Source: a virus
Taxonomy: Duplodnaviria > Heunggongvirae > Uroviricota > Caudoviricetes
IMG/VR virus record: IMGVR_UViG_2563366842_000009
DNA length: 29,651 nucleotides
Strand: one strand, 5' to 3'
How positions within the stretch are numbered: the first letter of the stretch is position 1; each line of letters starts with the position of its first letter. The translations under genes and the position numbers were made by a program. This document shows, piece after piece, positions 172 to 10,616 of this stretch. Below the pieces are notes generated by a model. It was given only the letters and a program-made list of their open reading frames with translations, did no database searches and was not told where the DNA came from.

Positions 172-1221
172 CTATGAAACCTCTGCCGCCACATTGTCGC
201 CAACATACAGCGATAACGGATTGAGGGTGACAGCTTGTTCAAGGTGGTCAGGAGCAAAGTGTGCATACTTCATTGTTTCTCGAATATTGGCATGCCCGAG
301 AATTTTCTGCAGCACCAGTATATTCCCGCCGTTCATCATAAAATGTGCACCAAAAGTATGACGCAAAACGTGCGTCTTCTGCCCTTCCGTCAATTCAATA
401 TTCGTTAGTTTGAGCATCTTTTTAAACTCCTGATAGCAGGGTTTAAACATTCTGCCTTGACGTTCGGACAACTCGTCGTACAGCCATTTAGGGATAGGAA
501 CTGTGCGATTCTTCTTACCTTTGGTTTTGGTGAACGTCAGTTTATATGGAGAAAGTTGCGGGCGGGTCAATCTCTCCGCTTCCCCCCATCGAGCGCCGGT
601 TGCAAGGCACACCTTAACAATCATGGTGAGGTCTTCTTTGCCGTATTGCTCGCAGGCTCGAAACAGCTCAGGGAGTTGAGACAAAGTCAGCCATGACATT
701 TCTTTCTCAGCTTCTTTGAATACTCGGATCCCATCAAGTGGATTGGGTAGGCTCCATTCCCCTAACCGGCGGAGCTCATTAAACACTGCTTCTAGGTATT
801 GTTGTTCGCGATTGACGGTTATAGGTTTGGCGATCCATTTCGAGGGGTCTTTATGATAACCATTGTCTATTTCACCACGTAATCGACGGTCACGATAATG
901 AGCCCAGTCTTTCGCGGTAAGGCGAGATGCAATCGGGTCGCCAAGTCCATTACATACGATTTGAAGCTTTGCAAACCTCGACTTACTGGCGACTAACGCT
1001 TGACCGTGCAAATTGTGCCAAAGCTGAATAATCTCGCTTAAGCGTCGGCGGTCTTCTTTCTTGCCGAGCCACGGCTTATCTTCACTCTCGCTTTTGGTAA
1101 ATGCTTCGAATGCCTCGGCCTCACCTTTGGTATTGAATTGCCGACGTATACGCCGCCCTTCTCTACCATTTGGATAGAGCTCGCATAACCATTTGCCATT
1201 TTTTTGCTTACTTACAGTCAT
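172..1221 (-). CDS. int: Phage integrase, tyrosine recombinase (P2/186 Int family)
   Basis: 349-aa ORF at the prophage end adjacent to the repressor; C-terminal catalytic region with LRHTFGAHF, LGH and a Tyr-containing tail typical of tyrosine recombinases. Confidence 0.9.
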   Translation of the reverse strand: MTVSKQKNGKWLCELYPNGREGRRIRRQFNTKGEAEAFEAFTKSESEDKPWLGKKEDRRRLSEIIQLWHNLHGQALVASKSRFAKLQIVCNGLGDPIASRLTAKDWAHYRDRRLRGEIDNGYHKDPSKWIAKPITVNREQQYLEAVFNELRRLGEWSLPNPLDGIRVFKEAEKEMSWLTLSQLPELFRACEQYGKEDLTMIVKVCLATGARWGEAERLTRPQLSPYKLTFTKTKGKKNRTVPIPKWLYDELSERQGRMFKPCYQEFKKMLKLTNIELTEGQKTHVLRHTFGAHFMMNGGNILVLQKILGHANIRETMKYAHFAPDHLEQAVTLNPLSLYVGDNVAAEVS

Positions 1222-1243: not shown

Positions 1244-1582
1244 TTATTCGCAAAGTGCTGTTGCGGCATCCATTACAGGATCCAAAGGAATTTTTACACC
1301 TGCATACTCTGGACTGTCTTTCCAAACAGCATCAATATTGCTCCCCTCAAGCTTTCCAGACTTTACTCCATCAATAGCAAAACCATTTAATGGGTATCGG
1401 TCATCAGTTGCTTTGTCGTACACAAAGGCATACTTACCGTTGACGCAAGACACCGTAGCTTTTTCAAAAGTTAACGGCCAATCATCACCAAACTTAGTGC
1501 CGTCTAAATCCTGTGTTTTTTCAGAGGCTAAGGAGCCAAAAGAAAAGGTAAGAAGCATAGCTAAAAAGAGTTTACGTTTCAT
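1244..1582 (-). CDS. Small secreted (signal-peptide) protein, cargo/moron between cI and int; function unknown
   Basis: Start taken at the internal Met (MKRKLFLAMLLTFSFGSLA|SE...) with an AAGGGA RBS 8 nt after the repressor stop; the track ORF extends to 1654 but that overlaps the repressor 3' end. Hydrophobic N-terminal signal peptide with an SLA cleavage-like site, no lipobox Cys. Local GC is visibly lower than the backbone. Confidence 0.6.
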   Translation of the reverse strand: MKRKLFLAMLLTFSFGSLASEKTQDLDGTKFGDDWPLTFEKATVSCVNGKYAFVYDKATDDRYPLNGFAIDGVKSGKLEGSNIDAVWKDSPEYAGVKIPLDPVMDAATALCE

Positions 1583-1590
1583 AATTTCCC

Positions 1591-2451
1591 TTATACGTGT
1601 TTTTCCAATGTGAAAACTACAACCCCGGCAGGCGTAATGTCGGTAATGTTGCATTCAAACTCAGCAGACTTATTTGACAACCTGACTTTTCCACCAGGTA
1701 AACGAATTACATCAAAAACATCAAGAGCGCCGTCGATATCAATTAACCAGCGGCCATTACTTATATTCGAAGCAGAACAGTCGACAAGCCAAGAGGCGGC
1801 CACACCGTCAACAAAAATCAATTCCCCTGAGTTAGAAGGAATCATTGAGGGGTCAGGCTGCCACGTTCCTGCGTCCTTAAGCTCACCAGATTCGAGGCGA
1901 GATTTTTTAATAGAAAAACCAGATGTGACACCTTCCCTGTTAGCTCGCATTTGCCCCTTGCCTGTTGCTAACCATTCCAGTGACGTATCGGTATCAAGAG
2001 CGCATGTAACAACAACATCACCGGGGAAAAAATCTCGCCTTACCCATGTGCTAATTGTGCCAGAGGAAATGCCGAGCAAATCACCAAGCTCCTTTTGCAT
2101 GGTAAAGCCGTACGCATCAAGAATCCTACGCAAAACGGTTTTACCACCATTCGTCATAATCTCGTCATAAAGCTCTTTGCCTTTTAACTTGCAACCGGCA
2201 CGCTCGCAATTTGCATTTGCAAGCTCTCCATTTACAAGCCAATTGATATCAGCTCCCGTGTCAAGACAACACCTAACTATGACGTTGCCAGGTATTGCAT
2301 CACGCTGAACCCAGCCGCTAACGCTGTGTTTAGCGATACCTAGCAGGTCAGCCAAATCCTTTTGCATCTTGACGCCATAGGCTGACATTAAGCGTTCCAA
2401 TACGCCGTTCGTTGCACTAACACGCCACTGAACATCAAGCTCAGAACTCAT
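1591..2451 (-). CDS. cI: CI-type immunity repressor (186 CI family) with a tandemly duplicated N-terminal HTH domain
   Basis: 286 aa. Two adjacent segments (about aa 16-78 and 106-166) are clearly paralogous (VLERLMSAYGVKMQKDLADLLGIAKHSVSGWVQRDAIPGNVIVRCCLDTGADINWLVNGE vs VLRRILDAYGFTMQKELGDLLGISSGTISTWVRRDFFPGDVVVTCALDTDTSLEWLATGK). The C-terminal part resembles the 186 CI C-terminal domain as I recall it (...WLVDI.GA......LPG.K......FEC...). Divergent from the Apl-like gene, upstream of int as in 186. Confidence 0.8.
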   Translation of the reverse strand: MSSELDVQWRVSATNGVLERLMSAYGVKMQKDLADLLGIAKHSVSGWVQRDAIPGNVIVRCCLDTGADINWLVNGELANANCERAGCKLKGKELYDEIMTNGGKTVLRRILDAYGFTMQKELGDLLGISSGTISTWVRRDFFPGDVVVTCALDTDTSLEWLATGKGQMRANREGVTSGFSIKKSRLESGELKDAGTWQPDPSMIPSNSGELIFVDGVAASWLVDCSASNISNGRWLIDIDGALDVFDVIRLPGGKVRLSNKSAEFECNITDITPAGVVVFTLEKHV

Positions 2452-2926: not shown

Positions 2927-2976
2927 CAGTCATCGCTTAACTGAACTTGATTTTGCAAGTTAAAGGGAGTTACAGC

Positions 2977-3486
2977 ATGTTAGATTTTCGTGTTTCGTCA
3001 CATGCGCACTTTGACGAGGCCTGCAGAAAATTCGCAGCTACTCATAACGTGAAAGAACTAGCGAATAAAGCCGGAATCAAGCCGCATACGCTTTACAACA
3101 AACTCAACCCAGAACAGCCGCACCAGTTAACGCCGCGTGAAATCTGGACACTGACAGACCTGACCGAAGACTCGACTCTCGTCGATGGTTTTCTGGCGCA
3201 GATCCATTGTCTGCCATGCGTACCGGTCAACGAGCTGGCAAAAGAGAAATTGCAATCCTACGTCATGCACGCAATGAGTGAACTAGGCGAACTGGCAAGC
3301 GGTGCAGTTTCCGGCGACCGCCTCACGCCAGCCAAAAAACAAAACATGATTGCTAGCGTAAATGCGGGGATTCGCATGTTGTCATTATCGGCAATGGCGC
3401 TGCATGCACGCCTGCAGACTAATCCCGCTATGTCGAGCGTAGTCGATACTATGAGCGGTATTGGCGCATCGTTTGGTCTGATTTGA
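2977..3486 (+). CDS. cII: CII-like lysogeny-establishment transcriptional activator (186 CII family)
   Basis: Start chosen at ATG 2977 with AAGGGAG RBS, giving 169 aa. Strong similarity to 186 CII as recalled (LNPEQPHQ.TP, TDLTEDSTLVDGFLAQIHCLPCVPVNELAK, C-terminal NPAMSSVVDTMSGIGASFGLI). Confidence 0.85.
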   Translation: MLDFRVSSHAHFDEACRKFAATHNVKELANKAGIKPHTLYNKLNPEQPHQLTPREIWTLTDLTEDSTLVDGFLAQIHCLPCVPVNELAKEKLQSYVMHAMSELGELASGAVSGDRLTPAKKQNMIASVNAGIRMLSLSAMALHARLQTNPAMSSVVDTMSGIGASFGLI

Positions 3487-5088: not shown

Positions 5089-5366
5089 GAAAAACACATC
5101 AACTAAAAATTCGGCCTGAGTTTTTTCAGGCTGTCATCAATGGAACGAAAAAAGCCGAGTTTCGTCTTGCTGACCGTGCTTTTGCTGTAGGGGATTTACT
5201 TTGCTTAAACGAGTATGGCCACTGCGAGTATGACCCGCAAAAGGTCGGGTTTACAGGGGCATTTGTCTACGTGCTGGTGACTCATGTAACTGACCTTAGC
5301 GAGTGGGCTCCTGGCTATGTGATGCTAAGCATACAGCGTAGGCAAATGGGGGAACTATGCGGGTAA
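5085..5366 (+). CDS. ASCH/DUF3850-like small protein
   Basis: Start at ATG 5085 (AAGGCGG RBS); the N-terminus (HQLKIRPEFFQAVINGTKKAEFRL.DR.F.VGD) resembles the ASCH-like DUF3850 fold as recalled. Confidence 0.55.
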   Translation: MRKTHQLKIRPEFFQAVINGTKKAEFRLADRAFAVGDLLCLNEYGHCEYDPQKVGFTGAFVYVLVTHVTDLSEWAPGYVMLSIQRRQMGELCG

Positions 5367-7591
5367 GCGTTAATTATGCTTACCCGTGGAACACTCCACG
5401 GTCGGCAATAGCCAGCCCATATCTTACCTATAACCAACAGCATCGCCGCGACCGTATGTTCGCGGCTTTGCTGCATGCGAGAAAGGTGCTTTCTCTGCAG
5501 CCTGAGTGCGTGCGATTTGACGTTTATCGCACCGCTGAAGTGCTGGAACAAAATCAGGGCAGTCAACGAGCCAATGCTTTTTTAATCAACTTCTGCAAAA
5601 AGGCATTGCCGCGTCTTGAACTGGTCGCAAAAAAATATGAGTGTGCAGGCATTAGCAGCGATGTATCAGGCGCTGTTTTCGGTGGTCATTTCGATACGAA
5701 ATATATGCAGTATCTGGCATCACGTATGGTCAATATGGTCGCCAGATACAACCGCCTCCCGGATATGTCGCGTGCCGACATTGACCTGCTTTCTGCTGAT
5801 ATCGCTAATTTTATTCGTGCTGAACTGGCAGAACATGATGACGCTGATTCACATTTCGGCGAGTTGGCGACATTACATGGCTGGTACATGCGCGCCGGAT
5901 TAATTGCGCTGCAATTTGGTGTTACTCCTCCTCATTGGGCGGGACTGACAACAAAATACTTTGACCAGGACAAAGCGGCGCCAGCAATCATGCGCATGTT
6001 TAATGAGGTTTGGTGGCGTGGCCGTCTGCGACGCATTGCTGCGTCATGGCGCGAACATCTGCAAATTGCAGTCGGTAATGTCAGCAAAAAACGACACGCC
6101 TACGCGAGTAAAAATTGTGTGACCGACTGGCGCGAGCAGAAGCGCCGCACGCGTGAATTTCTCAAAGGGCTGGATCTCGAAGACGAAGACGGCAACCGCA
6201 TCAGCCTGATTGAAAAATATGATGGCTCGGTCGCCAACCCTGCGATACGTCGCTGCGAGCTGATGACCCGCATCCGTGGGTTTGAAAATATCTGTAATGA
6301 ACTCGGTTATGTCGGGGAGTTTTACACCCTGACCGCGCCGTCTAAATATCACGCCACAACTAAAGCAGGCTACCGTAACAGCAAATGGAACGGAGCCAGC
6401 CCGTCGGACACGCAGAGTTATCTCACTGGCCTTTGGGCGCGCATACGCGCCAAGCTACACCGTGAAGAAATCCGCATTTTCGGCATCCGTGTTGCCGAGC
6501 CTCATCACGACGGGACGCCTCACTGGCACATGCTTATGTTTATGCTGCCGGAAGACGTTGAGCGTGTGCGCCTCATTATTCGCGATTATGCGTGGGAGGA
6601 AGACCACCACGAACTGAGAAGCGATAAAGCCAAAAAGGCACGTTTTCATGCCGAAGCCATTGACCCGGAAAAGGGCAGCGCTACCGGCTATGTCGCTAAA
6701 TACATTTCCAAAAACATCGACGGATATGCTCTTGATGGTGAAACCGATGACGAAAGCGGTGAGCTGCTGAAAGAGACAGCTCCCGCCGTATCAGCATGGG
6801 CGGCGCGCTGGCACATCCGTCAGTTCCAGTTTATCGGCGGTGCGCCGGTGACGGTCTACCGTGAATTACGTCGTCTCGCTGATACCGAGACCGCGCACGG
6901 TCTGAGCGTTGAGTTTGCTGCCGTCCATGATGCCGCTGACGCCGGTGACTGGGCTGGTTACGTTAATTCGCAGGGTGGTCCGTTTGTCCGTCGCGATGAT
7001 TTACAGGTGCGCACGCTGTATGAGCCGCGCCCCGAGTTTAACCAGTATGGTGAGGAAACCGTCTGCATTCGTGGCGTCTACGACTCTGCTGTCGGTGCTG
7101 GCACCCCGATTTTAACCCGGTTAACGCAGTGGAAAATTGTGCCGAAGCGTGCCGTTGATTTGGCCGTTGACGTTAAGGGCGCTCCTGCGCCCTCTCGGAG
7201 TTCTGTCAATAACTGTACGGGAAGCGAAAGCGATCCACCGGAACTCGATTTATCAAAACCCCTGAGTCGACGTGAAAGACGAGAGCTGACCAACCGACTC
7301 AGGAAGCAAAAGCCAGCAATACGGCGAAAATTCATCCACGGAACGGATGAGCAAAACGCAGCTATAGCTAAAACTATCGACGAGATACAACTGACAACCG
7401 GCATTACAATCGGCCGTGGCGAAGCCCTGCACCTGATGGCCGGTGGTAAAAGTTGTTTTGATGGCAAATGGCTACGCGGAACGGCCAAAGGAGAAATATT
7501 CTTAGCAGCACCATCGCATCAGGCTAAGGCTAGAAAAATCCTTTATCGTGTTGCTGCGATGGCTGAGGCATCAAAACCAATGCCTGAGTAA
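5357..7591 (+). CDS. A: Rolling-circle replication initiator endonuclease (P2 gpA family)
   Basis: 744 aa. HUH-type metal-binding motif (TPHWHMLMF) and catalytic tyrosine motif (GYVAKYISKNIDG) characteristic of P2 A / phiX174 A-type replicases; size and position match P2 gpA. Confidence 0.9.
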   Translation: MRVSVNYAYPWNTPRSAIASPYLTYNQQHRRDRMFAALLHARKVLSLQPECVRFDVYRTAEVLEQNQGSQRANAFLINFCKKALPRLELVAKKYECAGISSDVSGAVFGGHFDTKYMQYLASRMVNMVARYNRLPDMSRADIDLLSADIANFIRAELAEHDDADSHFGELATLHGWYMRAGLIALQFGVTPPHWAGLTTKYFDQDKAAPAIMRMFNEVWWRGRLRRIAASWREHLQIAVGNVSKKRHAYASKNCVTDWREQKRRTREFLKGLDLEDEDGNRISLIEKYDGSVANPAIRRCELMTRIRGFENICNELGYVGEFYTLTAPSKYHATTKAGYRNSKWNGASPSDTQSYLTGLWARIRAKLHREEIRIFGIRVAEPHHDGTPHWHMLMFMLPEDVERVRLIIRDYAWEEDHHELRSDKAKKARFHAEAIDPEKGSATGYVAKYISKNIDGYALDGETDDESGELLKETAPAVSAWAARWHIRQFQFIGGAPVTVYRELRRLADTETAHGLSVEFAAVHDAADAGDWAGYVNSQGGPFVRRDDLQVRTLYEPRPEFNQYGEETVCIRGVYDSAVGAGTPILTRLTQWKIVPKRAVDLAVDVKGAPAPSRSSVNNCTGSESDPPELDLSKPLSRRERRELTNRLRKQKPAIRRKFIHGTDEQNAAIAKTIDEIQLTTGITIGRGEALHLMAGGKSCFDGKWLRGTAKGEIFLAAPSHQAKARKILYRVAAMAEASKPMPE

Positions 7592-7664
7592 TTCATATCC
7601 ATATCATGCACATACAGCAATCACCCTATTCATTTTTTTCTTCCCATCTTTTACCAATACGTGC

Positions 7665-7684
7665 TACTGTATAAACATACAGTA
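7665..7684. promoter_or_regulatory. LexA (SOS) box TACTGTATAAACATACAGTA
   Basis: Perfect CTGT-N8-ACAG dyad with flanking TA/TA, about 20 nt upstream of a GGGAGGG RBS and ATG 7705; corresponds in position to the LexA-controlled p95/tum promoter of 186. Confidence 0.8.
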
Positions 7685-7704
7685 CACCCTATGGGAGGGA
7701 TTTC

Positions 7705-7887
7705 ATGGTTGGCGAACATTTCAGCCGAACGCAGCAAAAGTGGGCTTGTGTGCAATTTATCGCCGAGGTATCTCTGATTGCAAACTGCAAGCCATCAGAC
7801 TTAAAGCTCGCGCTCACTCTCATTGCAGACCTAGCAAACAGCGAAAATAACGAAACCGAAGATGATATTTTTTATAAGGCTGATTAG
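7705..7887 (+). CDS. SOS-operon ORF 1 (60 aa), possible N-terminal part of a Tum-like antirepressor
   Basis: Immediately downstream of the LexA box with a strong RBS; ends at TAG 7885..7887, in the same frame as the DinI-like ORF that starts one codon later. Confidence 0.55.
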   Translation: MVGEHFSRTQQKWACVQFIAEVSLIANCKPSDLKLALTLIADLANSENNETEDDIFYKAD

Positions 7888-7890
7888 ATT

Positions 7891-8124
7891 ATGAGAATCA
7901 ATATCACGTTGGATAAAGAGCAAAAAATTAGTCAGGCAACGTTGGATGCACTAGAGGCTGAGCTGTACCGCAATCTTCAACCTATTTACCCAAAGACTGC
8001 TATCCGCATTCGCAAGGGCTCCGCAAATGGTGTTGAGCTAAGCGGTTTGAAACTGGACGAAGATAAAAAACGAGTAATGGAAATCATGCAGCAAGTATGG
8101 GAAGACGATAGCTGGCTGCATTAA
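7891..8124 (+). CDS. DinI-family protein (Tum C-terminal-like module)
   Basis: 77 aa aligning along its length with E. coli DinI as recalled (MRI.[IV]T..K......A.DAL..EL.R......P......R.......LS........K.R..EI.Q..WE....W); low-GC region. Confidence 0.8.
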   Translation: MRINITLDKEQKISQATLDALEAELYRNLQPIYPKTAIRIRKGSANGVELSGLKLDEDKKRVMEIMQQVWEDDSWLH

Positions 8125-8130
8125 TAAACG

Positions 8131-8165
8131 CCGCCAGCGCTGAAACTCGCTTTCAGTGCTGGCGG
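8131..8165. terminator. Hairpin between convergent genes (15-bp stem with 1 mismatch, loop ctcgc); candidate bidirectional terminator
   Basis: ccgccagcgctgaaa / tttcagtgctggcgg inverted repeat located between the DinI-like stop (8124) and the stop of the minus-strand 312-aa gene (8198). Confidence 0.5.
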
Positions 8166-8197
8166 GGTTGAACAACGAGCTACGCGAGGCGTTAGTG

Positions 8198-9136
8198 TTA
8201 ATTTAGTTTTAATGAATGGTACTCAACCGAGTCGACCTTAGATTTGATATATGTACAATCATTTACAGAGAGTAATGCTGCTAGTAAGCGACATACCAGA
8301 GCCTGCATTTCTCGTAATATATCATCACCATATTGACCGCCATTAACACTGGAGAAACCAAGCGGTTGACCATAGAAAATAGCCTCATGAAAATTATCAT
8401 TGCGGATGGTTGTAATATTTTTTTTGCCTGTTACCCATGAAGGACGTGGTATGCCATAGGTTTCGCACAGCCACTTTAACCGCCTGGAATGATTTAACGT
8501 TTTTTCAGGGCACTTGTTTTTTTCTGCCCACGCTAAAGCAAAGCAACCATCCAATGCCATATAAAGATAATGGAACTTTTCAAATGAAAGGTATTGTGGG
8601 TTGTGAGATAAAAATAGTGCGTGCACCACTGCCGCTATTTTTATTGGTGATTTCTCTTTTTTTTGCTCGCTAGATATGTAATTGAGAGCCAATTCTATGA
8701 TTGCTTTTTCAGAGCATCTGCCGAGAGTAAAGTCTGTTAACTTAGCAGGCTTGATGGGGGTTGCATCTAAAAAACCAGCTTCGGTGGTTGTTAATCTCAT
8801 CCCCCTGAAAAAAGACAGGCACCACACAACAAAGTTGAGAGTTTCTAGCGAGGATGTATTTTTTAATTTTAGTATGTGCGTTTTTGGTAATCCGAATACT
8901 CGGCAACTATAAGGCATTGTGGATATGCCGCCATTAAAGTTATATATCTCTTGGTTTCCGGGGTATATCCAGCCATTAACAACATTTTTGTCATTGTTAA
9001 CGCGCTCTACTTTCTCAGCGAGGCCGGGTAAAGTAAGTAAAGAAAAATTTTCAGTCTCAATGTTAACTTCTACTGGATAGTATCCAAACTCAGATCCAAT
9101 CTCATCGGGCTGCTGTTCGGTAACTTCACCTTGCAT
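8198..9136 (-). CDS. Orphan 312-aa protein in the A-cos accessory hotspot; candidate anti-phage defence or abortive-infection protein, function unknown
   Basis: Good RBS (GGAG 6 nt before ATG at 9136); low GC relative to the phage backbone; no signal peptide or obvious transmembrane segment; occupies the old/tin position of P2. Contains an R-N-x-x-x-H motif (RNDNFH, 8387..8404), which is only weak evidence for a HEPN-like RNase. Confidence 0.7.
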   Translation of the reverse strand: MQGEVTEQQPDEIGSEFGYYPVEVNIETENFSLLTLPGLAEKVERVNNDKNVVNGWIYPGNQEIYNFNGGISTMPYSCRVFGLPKTHILKLKNTSSLETLNFVVWCLSFFRGMRLTTTEAGFLDATPIKPAKLTDFTLGRCSEKAIIELALNYISSEQKKEKSPIKIAAVVHALFLSHNPQYLSFEKFHYLYMALDGCFALAWAEKNKCPEKTLNHSRRLKWLCETYGIPRPSWVTGKKNITTIRNDNFHEAIFYGQPLGFSSVNGGQYGDDILREMQALVCRLLAALLSVNDCTYIKSKVDSVEYHSLKLN

Positions 9137-9373: not shown

Positions 9374-9392
9374 GGCGTGGCGGGGAAAGCAT
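9374..9392. other. Candidate cos site (19-nt cohesive-end sequence GGCGTGGCGGGGAAAGCAT)
   Basis: Matches the 186 cohesive-end sequence as I recall it, differing at 2 of 19 positions from the recalled P2 cos; lies about 180 bp downstream of the portal gene Q, as expected for P2-family phages. Confidence 0.6.
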
Positions 9393-9569: not shown

Positions 9570-10616
9570 TTATTCCGGGTTATCGAGGGTGTACTCTTTG
9601 AACCTGATGACCTCCATGCCGAGCCAGTCGTTTACCTCCCTGAACCTGTCCTGCAGCGGCGACAGCTCGTTACGCACAAATACCTTTGCCACCTTCTCAA
9701 CGTCACCGAGCGAGCCGATATTCTCGGGCTTACCGCCCATTAGCTGGAAAGGTACGCGGTGCGCATCCATCAGGTCGGCGGCACTGGCTTTCTTGATATT
9801 GAAAAAGTCATCCTTTGTGGCGACCTCGCTCAGTGGCACGATTTTTATGCCGTCCGGTTTTCCACCGGGGGCGTAGAAAAACAGGTTCTTAAAGTTGCCG
9901 AGCCCTTTCGAGTTGCGCATCGCCTCGCGTAGTGATTCGACGTCGGTCGCACTCTGCGCCGGGTCGGTTACATACATGATGTAACCCGCGTGCGCGCCGT
10001 TCTGGTAATACTTGCGGCGGAACAGCGTTGCGGATTCATTCAGCCAGGCAGAATTAAGCGCGCTGAGATATTCCGGCAGGCCGTAAATCTCCTGATTAAT
10101 GTCAGGCTCCAGCAGGTGAAACACGGTATCAGGCGCGAACTCATGCGGCTGAGTGAAGTTTTCCACAAACCAGAAAATTGAATCATCAACCCCACGGCGG
10201 GTGTATTTTGCTGGTGATGCCAGCAACTTGATTAACTGGCCGGTGACGCTGTGGCGCTGCTCAAGAAAAGCGTTGCCGAAGACCAGATAGTCGAGCGCAA
10301 AACGGCTGAAATCCTGACGGGACAGCAGCGGGTGCGGAATGTAGGTGCTCGCGAGCACGTTGCGTTTAACGTAAATCGGTGAGCTGTGATGCACGGCAGA
10401 GCGCAGGCTCTTTGCCAGCCCGGAAAAGCTGACCGGCGGCTCGTACCATTTGCCGTTACTGATGCACTCGACATAATCCAGAATGTCGCGCTTATCGAGC
10501 ACCGGAACTGGCTCACCGAAGGTGAACGCTTCCATTTTTTGCGGTGCGCTGGCTTTCAGTTGCTGTGGTGCGCGTGTTTTCTGCGCGGCGGCTTTGCGGG
10601 ATTTTTGCTTACCCAT
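9570..10616 (-). CDS. Q: Portal protein (P2 gpQ family)
   Basis: 348 aa; extensive recalled similarity to P2 Q (MEAFTFGEPVPVLD.RDILDYVECISNG.WYEPPVSF.GLAKSLR.AVHHSSPIYVKRN.LAST...). Start overlaps the stop of P. Confidence 0.95.
   Translation of the reverse strand: MGKQKSRKAAAQKTRAPQQLKASAPQKMEAFTFGEPVPVLDKRDILDYVECISNGKWYEPPVSFSGLAKSLRSAVHHSSPIYVKRNVLASTYIPHPLLSRQDFSRFALDYLVFGNAFLEQRHSVTGQLIKLLASPAKYTRRGVDDSIFWFVENFTQPHEFAPDTVFHLLEPDINQEIYGLPEYLSALNSAWLNESATLFRRKYYQNGAHAGYIMYVTDPAQSATDVESLREAMRNSKGLGNFKNLFFYAPGGKPDGIKIVPLSEVATKDDFFNIKKASAADLMDAHRVPFQLMGGKPENIGSLGDVEKVAKVFVRNELSPLQDRFREVNDWLGMEVIRFKEYTLDNPE

Follow-up and report, generated by a model that had tools for sequence, protein, structure and literature searches.

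The window analysed here, that is, the whole stretch of 29,651 nucleotides, is a prophage of the 186/P2 family that resembles PSP3 (genus Eganvirus); by megablast, approximately 85% of its first 25 kb aligns to the Salmonella phages SEN1 and PSP3 at approximately 90% identity. The region of interest lies between replication gene A and the portal gene and carries, behind an SOS-type promoter, two short genes in a single reading frame. We refer to these genes as tumA and tumB, the names under which they are annotated in PSP3. The features of this region, together with the genes that place it within the prophage, are as follows.

172-1221, minus strand: integrase gene.
1591..2451, minus strand: cI, encoding the immunity repressor, which TumA presumably targets (a 286-aa protein with two Phage_CI_repr helix-turn-helix domains and Phage_CI_C).
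2947-3486: gene for a CII/CP76 protein.
5357-7591: gene for replication endonuclease A.
7641..7646, plus strand: -35 hexamer TTCCCA of a p95-type SOS promoter, aligned column for column to the annotated 186 p95 -35 (TTCACA).
7662..7670, plus strand: extended -10 TGcTACTGT, placed by alignment to the annotated 186 p95 -10 (TACTGT).
7665..7684, plus strand: LexA (SOS) box TACTGTATAAACATACAGTA, matching the consensus at 18/20 positions and homologous to the annotated 186 LexA site.
7693..7699, plus strand: Shine-Dalgarno sequence GGGAGGG of tumA, 5 nt ahead of the ATG, read from the sequence.
7705..7887, plus strand: tumA, encoding a predicted 60-aa antirepressor of the Tum-N type (100% identity to PSP3 TumA; phrog_1993).
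7891..8124, plus strand: tumB, encoding a 77-aa DinI-family protein (Pfam PF06183; 98.7% identity to PSP3 TumB).
8127..8169, plus strand: GC-rich hairpin directly after the tumB stop, with a 15-bp main stem and three outer pairs and no U-tract.
9570-10616, minus strand: portal gene.

The p95-type promoter was positioned by alignment to the annotated 186 promoter; a generic promoter scan of the region did not call it, as its hexamers are too weak. The -35 and -10 hexamers are separated by an 18-nt spacer in both the window promoter and 186 p95, a TTC(C/A)CA -35 is kept in most of the 28 related loci described below, and the TG ahead of the -10 hexamer can be read as an extended -10 element. The -10 hexamer TACTGT (7665-7670) is also the left arm of the LexA box. 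Compared with the 20-nt LexA consensus TACTG(TA)5CAGTA, this box carries two mismatches, and it is the sole match at three or fewer mismatches in the 29.6 kb, with 0 matches in 100 shuffles; the match is thus well beyond chance. In a scripted survey, a CTG-N10-CAG box was found 35-41 nt 5' of the tumA start in 28/28 related loci, and the GGGAGGG ribosome-binding site and the p95-type promoter layout likewise recur across these 28 loci. Translation of tumA from the ATG at 7705 proceeds through 60 codons to the TAG at 7885-7887; a single ATT follows, and tumB runs in the same frame from the ATG at 7891 through 77 codons to the TAA at 8122-8124. That the two genes share a frame is by itself a one-in-three event. 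A terminator scan called none after tumB; the hairpin at 8127-8169 came from RNA folding (-37.5 kcal/mol, z -4.87, with none of 200 shuffles equally stable), and it sits where 186 has the partial terminator t95a, a position that suggests a candidate terminator-like role.

TumB matches the Pfam DinI family (PF06183) with 84.3 bits against a cut-off of 24.2 (E 7e-24; residues 15-76 on model positions 2-63 of 63), phrog_189 with E 3.3e-30 and, over residues 1-75, the E. coli DinI structure 1ghh (1ghh_A) with E 2.6e-9. Its C-terminus (...MEIMQQVWEDDSWLH) is acidic, as is the C-terminal helix of DinI, and the protein shares 47% identity with 186 Tum over residues 71-145 of the latter. Family membership suggests that TumB may modulate RecA filaments. 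Only 3 nt separate the tumA stop from the start of tumB, and tumB lacks a good ribosome-binding site (a distant AAGG only), so that it is probably translated by termination-reinitiation. The first approximately 40 nt of tumB (ATGAGAATCAATATCACGTTGGATAAAGAnCAAAAAAT, window 7891-7931) are near-identical even in 186, as seen in a comparison that also covered L006 and L035; many E. coli matches stop at window position ~7931 and continue with a different DinI allele, and at this position tumB alleles have apparently been joined by recombination.

TumA is 100% identical to PSP3 TumA (AAN08399, annotated 'UV induction of prophage'), and the identical protein is also encoded in SEN1, SI22, SW9, Midge, and RCIP0057, with Salmonella, Escherichia, and Klebsiella as hosts. 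It matches phrog_1993 over 57/60 residues (E 2.7e-32), a family for which the PHROGs entry lists the function as unknown; searches of TumA returned no Pfam family, no PDB sequence match, and no PADLOC match. An AF2 model of medium confidence (pLDDT 71.6) predicts two helices, at residues 8-25 and 30-51, followed by an unstructured acidic tail. While BLASTP did not align TumA with 186 Tum, hhalign of a profile built from 108 TumA relatives against one built from 40 N-domains of the 186 type gave a probability of 84.8% (E 6.6e-6) over 34 columns, in which columns 16-49 of the former align with columns 14-47 of the latter around a common core, C-x4-D-x3-A-L-x-L-I-A-[DE]-[LI]-A. The 186 Tum N-domain also matches phrog_1993 (E 1.5e-23), as well as phrog_698 (E 5.9e-6). 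Judged from these comparisons, TumA is a homologue of the 186 Tum N-domain at the profile level only, with approximately 85% probability over 34 columns.

These results bear on most of what the initial annotation had proposed. The LexA box, the two open reading frames, and the in-frame TAG that it described were all confirmed, and the hallmarks of the LexA control that it suggested are present at the level of sequence, in the form of a near-consensus box that overlaps the -10. Its description of the downstream frame as DinI-like was borne out by both the Pfam and the structure match, and its Tum-like reading of the upstream frame is upheld by profile homology and joint membership in phrog_1993, with pairwise BLASTP blank. 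The further claim that the region is a counterpart to the 186 tum locus is likewise supported.

A search of a protein collection with TumA yielded 208 clusters at 90% identity from many Enterobacteriaceae genera, 120 of which were listed; 107 of the 120 listed clusters are 59-63 aa long, the longer ones among those listed are all N-terminal over-extensions through the LexA box, and none of the 120 listed reads through into DinI. A DNA scan with one genome per species, analysed by script, provided 28 loci in 28 species. The tumA frame is 59-61 codons long in 27/28 of these loci, the exception being the most divergent match (L030), which ends after 37 codons, and the stop codons that close the frame are TAG (17 loci), TAA (7), and TGA (4). 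A DinI gene directly 3' of tumA was found in only 7 loci; five of them have an in-frame spacer of 3 nt between the two genes, and the spacers of L022 (2 nt) and L027 (13 nt) put the DinI gene out of frame, that of L027 having its own GAGGG. Approximately 20 of the 27 evaluable loci have no DinI gene after tumA and instead carry cargo (e.g., DNA methylases) or late genes. The median pairwise dN/dS of tumA is 0.098 (156 pairs), with 2 synonymous and 0 non-synonymous differences between the window and PSP3; tumA is under purifying selection. Matches were also found in 81 complete E. coli genomes; the rows listed for these are annotated by PGAP as 'hypothetical protein' and 'DinI family protein', with no pseudogene label among them. 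The N-domain of the 186 type, too, was found as a stand-alone 63-64-aa 'Tum protein', in three contigs with a DNA methylase after it in place of dinI, and the best 120 matches from a search with the 186 N-domain, mostly stand-alone or contig-truncated proteins, include no full-length form of 146 aa. The two modules are thus separable in both the TumA-type and the 186-type sub-families.

The survey speaks directly to the idea that a fused tum gene of the 186 type was cut here by a recent nonsense mutation, leaving a truncated antirepressor and possibly a prophage without SOS induction. Such an origin would fit two genes that lie in one frame with only TAG-ATT between them and that, if joined, amount to 138 codons, near the 146 aa of 186 Tum. 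The identical stop is shared, however, by PSP3 (a phage isolate whose complete genome has been deposited) and by 9 other phage records; 27/28 loci stop at the same place, with any of three stop codons, and tumA persists in approximately 20 loci that have no downstream dinI. Selection on the gene is not relaxed, PGAP calls two coding sequences in the rows listed for the matching E. coli genomes, and 186 carries a 36-nt extra linker, so that one point mutation cannot interconvert the fused and split forms. A sense codon at the stop site in relatives, which had been named as a check, was looked for, and none of the 120 listed clusters has one that leads into DinI; the product of the homologues is consistently a separate protein of approximately 60 aa. 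We thus rejected the nonsense-truncated pseudogene, which we consider exceedingly improbable.

A second possibility is that the TAG is read through, either as a programmed event or in a suppressor host, such that a TumA-Ile-TumB fusion resembling 186 Tum would act as the antirepressor or as a second product that is required. The TAG and the 3-nt in-frame junction are kept throughout the PSP3 clade (the window, PSP3, and L003-L006), L014 has an in-frame TAA-GCG-ATG junction, and 186 produces its DinI module both within the fusion and separately, all of which could speak for a fusion; by contrast, the stop varies among TAG, TAA, and TGA, spacers may be out of frame (2 nt in L022, 13 nt in L027, and 10 nt in the E. 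coli prophage DuoHS), and tumB is missing altogether after most tumA genes. The shared junction of the PSP3 clade is accounted for by close descent (TumA identity of 85-100%), and translational coupling needs a short spacer whatever the frame. Because stop type, frame, and tumB presence are all non-conserved, a readthrough or suppressor-dependent arrangement is not supported, and we regard it as highly improbable. It is also very doubtful that the TAG and 3-nt junction is functional in the PSP3 clade in a more limited sense, in that low-level UAG readthrough or amber-suppressor hosts would give rise to a minor 138-aa fusion that tunes induction and mimics 186 Tum. A weaker, evolutionary version of that proposal would hold that the two genes were separate in the ancestor and that 186 Tum arose by their recent fusion; if this is true, the locus in the window would represent the unfused precursor state.

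Among the three options that the initial annotation had left open, two genuine genes is therefore the one that stood, and neither a frame split by a nonsense mutation nor a readthrough arrangement did. The region is very likely an intact SOS-induction operon of a PSP3-like prophage that comprises two separate genes, tumA and tumB, and the TAG at 7885-7887 is the normal end of tumA. This arrangement has already been annotated and described and is not new biology.

The presumed target of TumA, a cognate CI repressor of the PSP3 type, is encoded in the same element; it is 98.6% identical to PSP3 CI and 33% identical to 186 CI. Phage SI22 encodes the identical TumA, and its CI is approximately 55% identical to the window CI in the first helix-turn-helix domain and almost the same in the second such domain and the C-terminus. 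The conserved parts of CI may be those that TumA contacts, and TumA could then cross-induce heteroimmune relatives. An open reading frame between int and cI (1244-1654, minus strand) belongs to DUF2511 and has a signal-peptide-like N-terminus (MKRKLFLAMLLTFSFGSLA); SI22 has a DUF2511 gene at the equivalent position, and this frame is probably a lysogenic-conversion moron.

On the other side of the tum operon, a 312-aa open reading frame (8198-9136, minus strand) occupies a variable slot between the operon and cos. It matches phrog_5937 over its full length (E 3.8e-200; function unknown according to PHROGs), with no Pfam or PADLOC match, and could be an uncharacterised moron or defence gene. 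Other cargo in the slot after tum includes gp37/gp38 in PSP3, orf97 in 186, and DNA methylases in L009, L024, and L032. Immediately after the tumB hairpin, at window 8167-8196, lies a 30-nt motif, GGTTGAACAACGAGCnnnGCGAGGCGTTAG, that is kept downstream of the tum operon at a variable distance in PSP3, 186, and several genomes, with copies in L001 (2512-2541), L002 (4884-4913), L003, L006, L022, L025, and L035; it seems to mark a fixed edge of the region in which cargo is exchanged. Further downstream, GGCGTGGCGGGGAAAGCAT at 9374-9392 (plus strand) is unique in the window, with no matches in shuffles, and has two mismatches to the P2 cohesive-end sequence; it is probably the cos site, located between the cargo frame and the portal gene.

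With two intact genes, induction of this prophage would proceed as follows. In an undamaged cell, LexA would occupy the box at 7665-7684, which overlaps the -10, and keep the operon off; upon DNA damage, RecA-stimulated cleavage of LexA would free the promoter and allow transcription of the operon. tumA would be translated from its strong ribosome-binding site to give a 60-aa protein of two helices, and TumA would bind CI non-covalently, such that CI would lose its hold of the lytic promoter and lytic growth would follow. tumB, probably translated by termination-reinitiation, would yield a DinI-like protein that modulates the SOS signal by way of RecA filaments and is dispensable for antirepression. 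The prophage should hence be regarded as SOS-inducible via an antirepressor rather than as defective, and the 60-aa open reading frame that annotation pipelines label 'hypothetical protein' is the likely induction trigger.

The designation of TumA as an antirepressor draws on the literature on 186 Tum and on the upstream gene of PSP3, the latter by way of a second-hand personal communication. In the passages of Lemire et al. 2011 (PMC3121763) that concern these phages, tum of PSP3 and Fels-2 is described as interrupted by a stop codon, with the upstream gene as the antirepressor; the source given there for the split tum and the PSP3 activity is Bunny et al. 2002 together with a personal communication from G. 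E. Christie. The same passages cite Shearwin et al. 1998 for the finding that 186 Tum binds CI and blocks its binding to the operator. Both genes could nevertheless be real with induction depending on another factor (TumB acting on RecA, or self-cleavage of CI) and with TumA serving some other role linked to the SOS response. A literature search (TumA, TumB, PSP3) found no direct assay of a PSP3-type TumA, and, as noted, PHROGs lists no function for the family. Against this, TumA is homologous, at the profile level, to the N-domain of 186 Tum, the rest of which is the DinI-like half, and this half alone, the 'truncated Tum' of 186, is annotated only as modulating SOS induction; the personal communication, as relayed in the passages cited above, assigns antirepressor activity to the upstream gene, and tumA and its LexA box are retained where dinI has been lost. 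In DuoHS, loss of the small upstream gene alone blocks induction (PMC12055606), and Gifsy induction is unaffected by non-polar dinI deletions (PMC3121763). A role for TumA other than antirepression is thus unlikely.

The closest known counterpart of the two-gene operon is that of PSP3 (GenBank AY135486; Eganvirus PsP3), in which the identical open reading frames are annotated as tumA ("similar to 5' end 186 tum; UV induction of prophage") and tumB ("similar to dinI and 3' end of 186 tum"). A 641-nt region is 94% identical between PSP3 and the window; the TAG-ATT-ATG junction is identical, the promoter and LexA box are near-identical (one base differs in the box), and the two genes occupy the same site, after replication gene A. 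PSP3 differs in having gp37 and gp38 downstream, where the window has the 312-aa frame on the opposite strand. Phage 186 has a homologous promoter and LexA site in the same geometry. However, its two modules are fused, with no stop, in one 146-aa Tum, whereas those of the window are separate, and it carries its extra 36-nt linker where the window has TAG-ATT. An internal GTG in 186 tum, the annotated start of 'truncated Tum - modulates SOS induction', lines up exactly with the tumB ATG, so that a separate DinI module is produced in 186 as well. The N-module of 186 is too diverged from TumA for BLASTP, and 186 CI, 33% identical to that of the window, has one helix-turn-helix domain where the window CI has two.

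A functional study is available for DuoHS, a P2-like prophage of E. coli HS, in which an in-frame deletion of tum (ECHS_RS04495) abolished induction by mitomycin C, as did lexA(Ind-) (PMC12055606). We found ECHS_RS04495 to be a 62-aa open reading frame just after gene A, behind a sequence resembling a LexA box, with a 77-aa DinI-like gene 10 nt 3' of it that is out of frame and has its own ribosome-binding site. DuoHS thus resembles the window in having split, LexA-controlled tum and dinI genes; in contrast to TumA, however, its Tum belongs to another PHROG (phrog_698, E 5.9e-38; phrog_1993 marginal, E 0.002) and is a remote relative only, with a C-x4-E-x3-LAL motif in common and no significant hhalign match to the TumA family. 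The deletion phenotype indicates that a stand-alone small upstream gene suffices to account for SOS induction. Upstream of DuoHS tum (L031 24540-24600), there are apparently two adjacent LexA-box-like sequences, TACTGTAAATATAAACAGTG and ...ACATACAGTA, where the window has one.

The dinI-gfoA and dinI-gftA operons of the Gifsy prophages, described by Lemire et al. 2011 (PMC3121763), offer a more distant parallel, in that they are LexA-controlled, combine a small antirepressor with a DinI homologue, and act in phages with non-cleavable repressors; unlike in the window, dinI comes first, the antirepressor and repressor families are unrelated, and the phages are lambdoid. Set beside these systems, the one modest addition of our survey is that the LexA box and the Tum-N module form a conserved unit across many Enterobacteriaceae genera, with the DinI module as an optional passenger that is fused in 186, adjacent in PSP3 and DuoHS, or absent.
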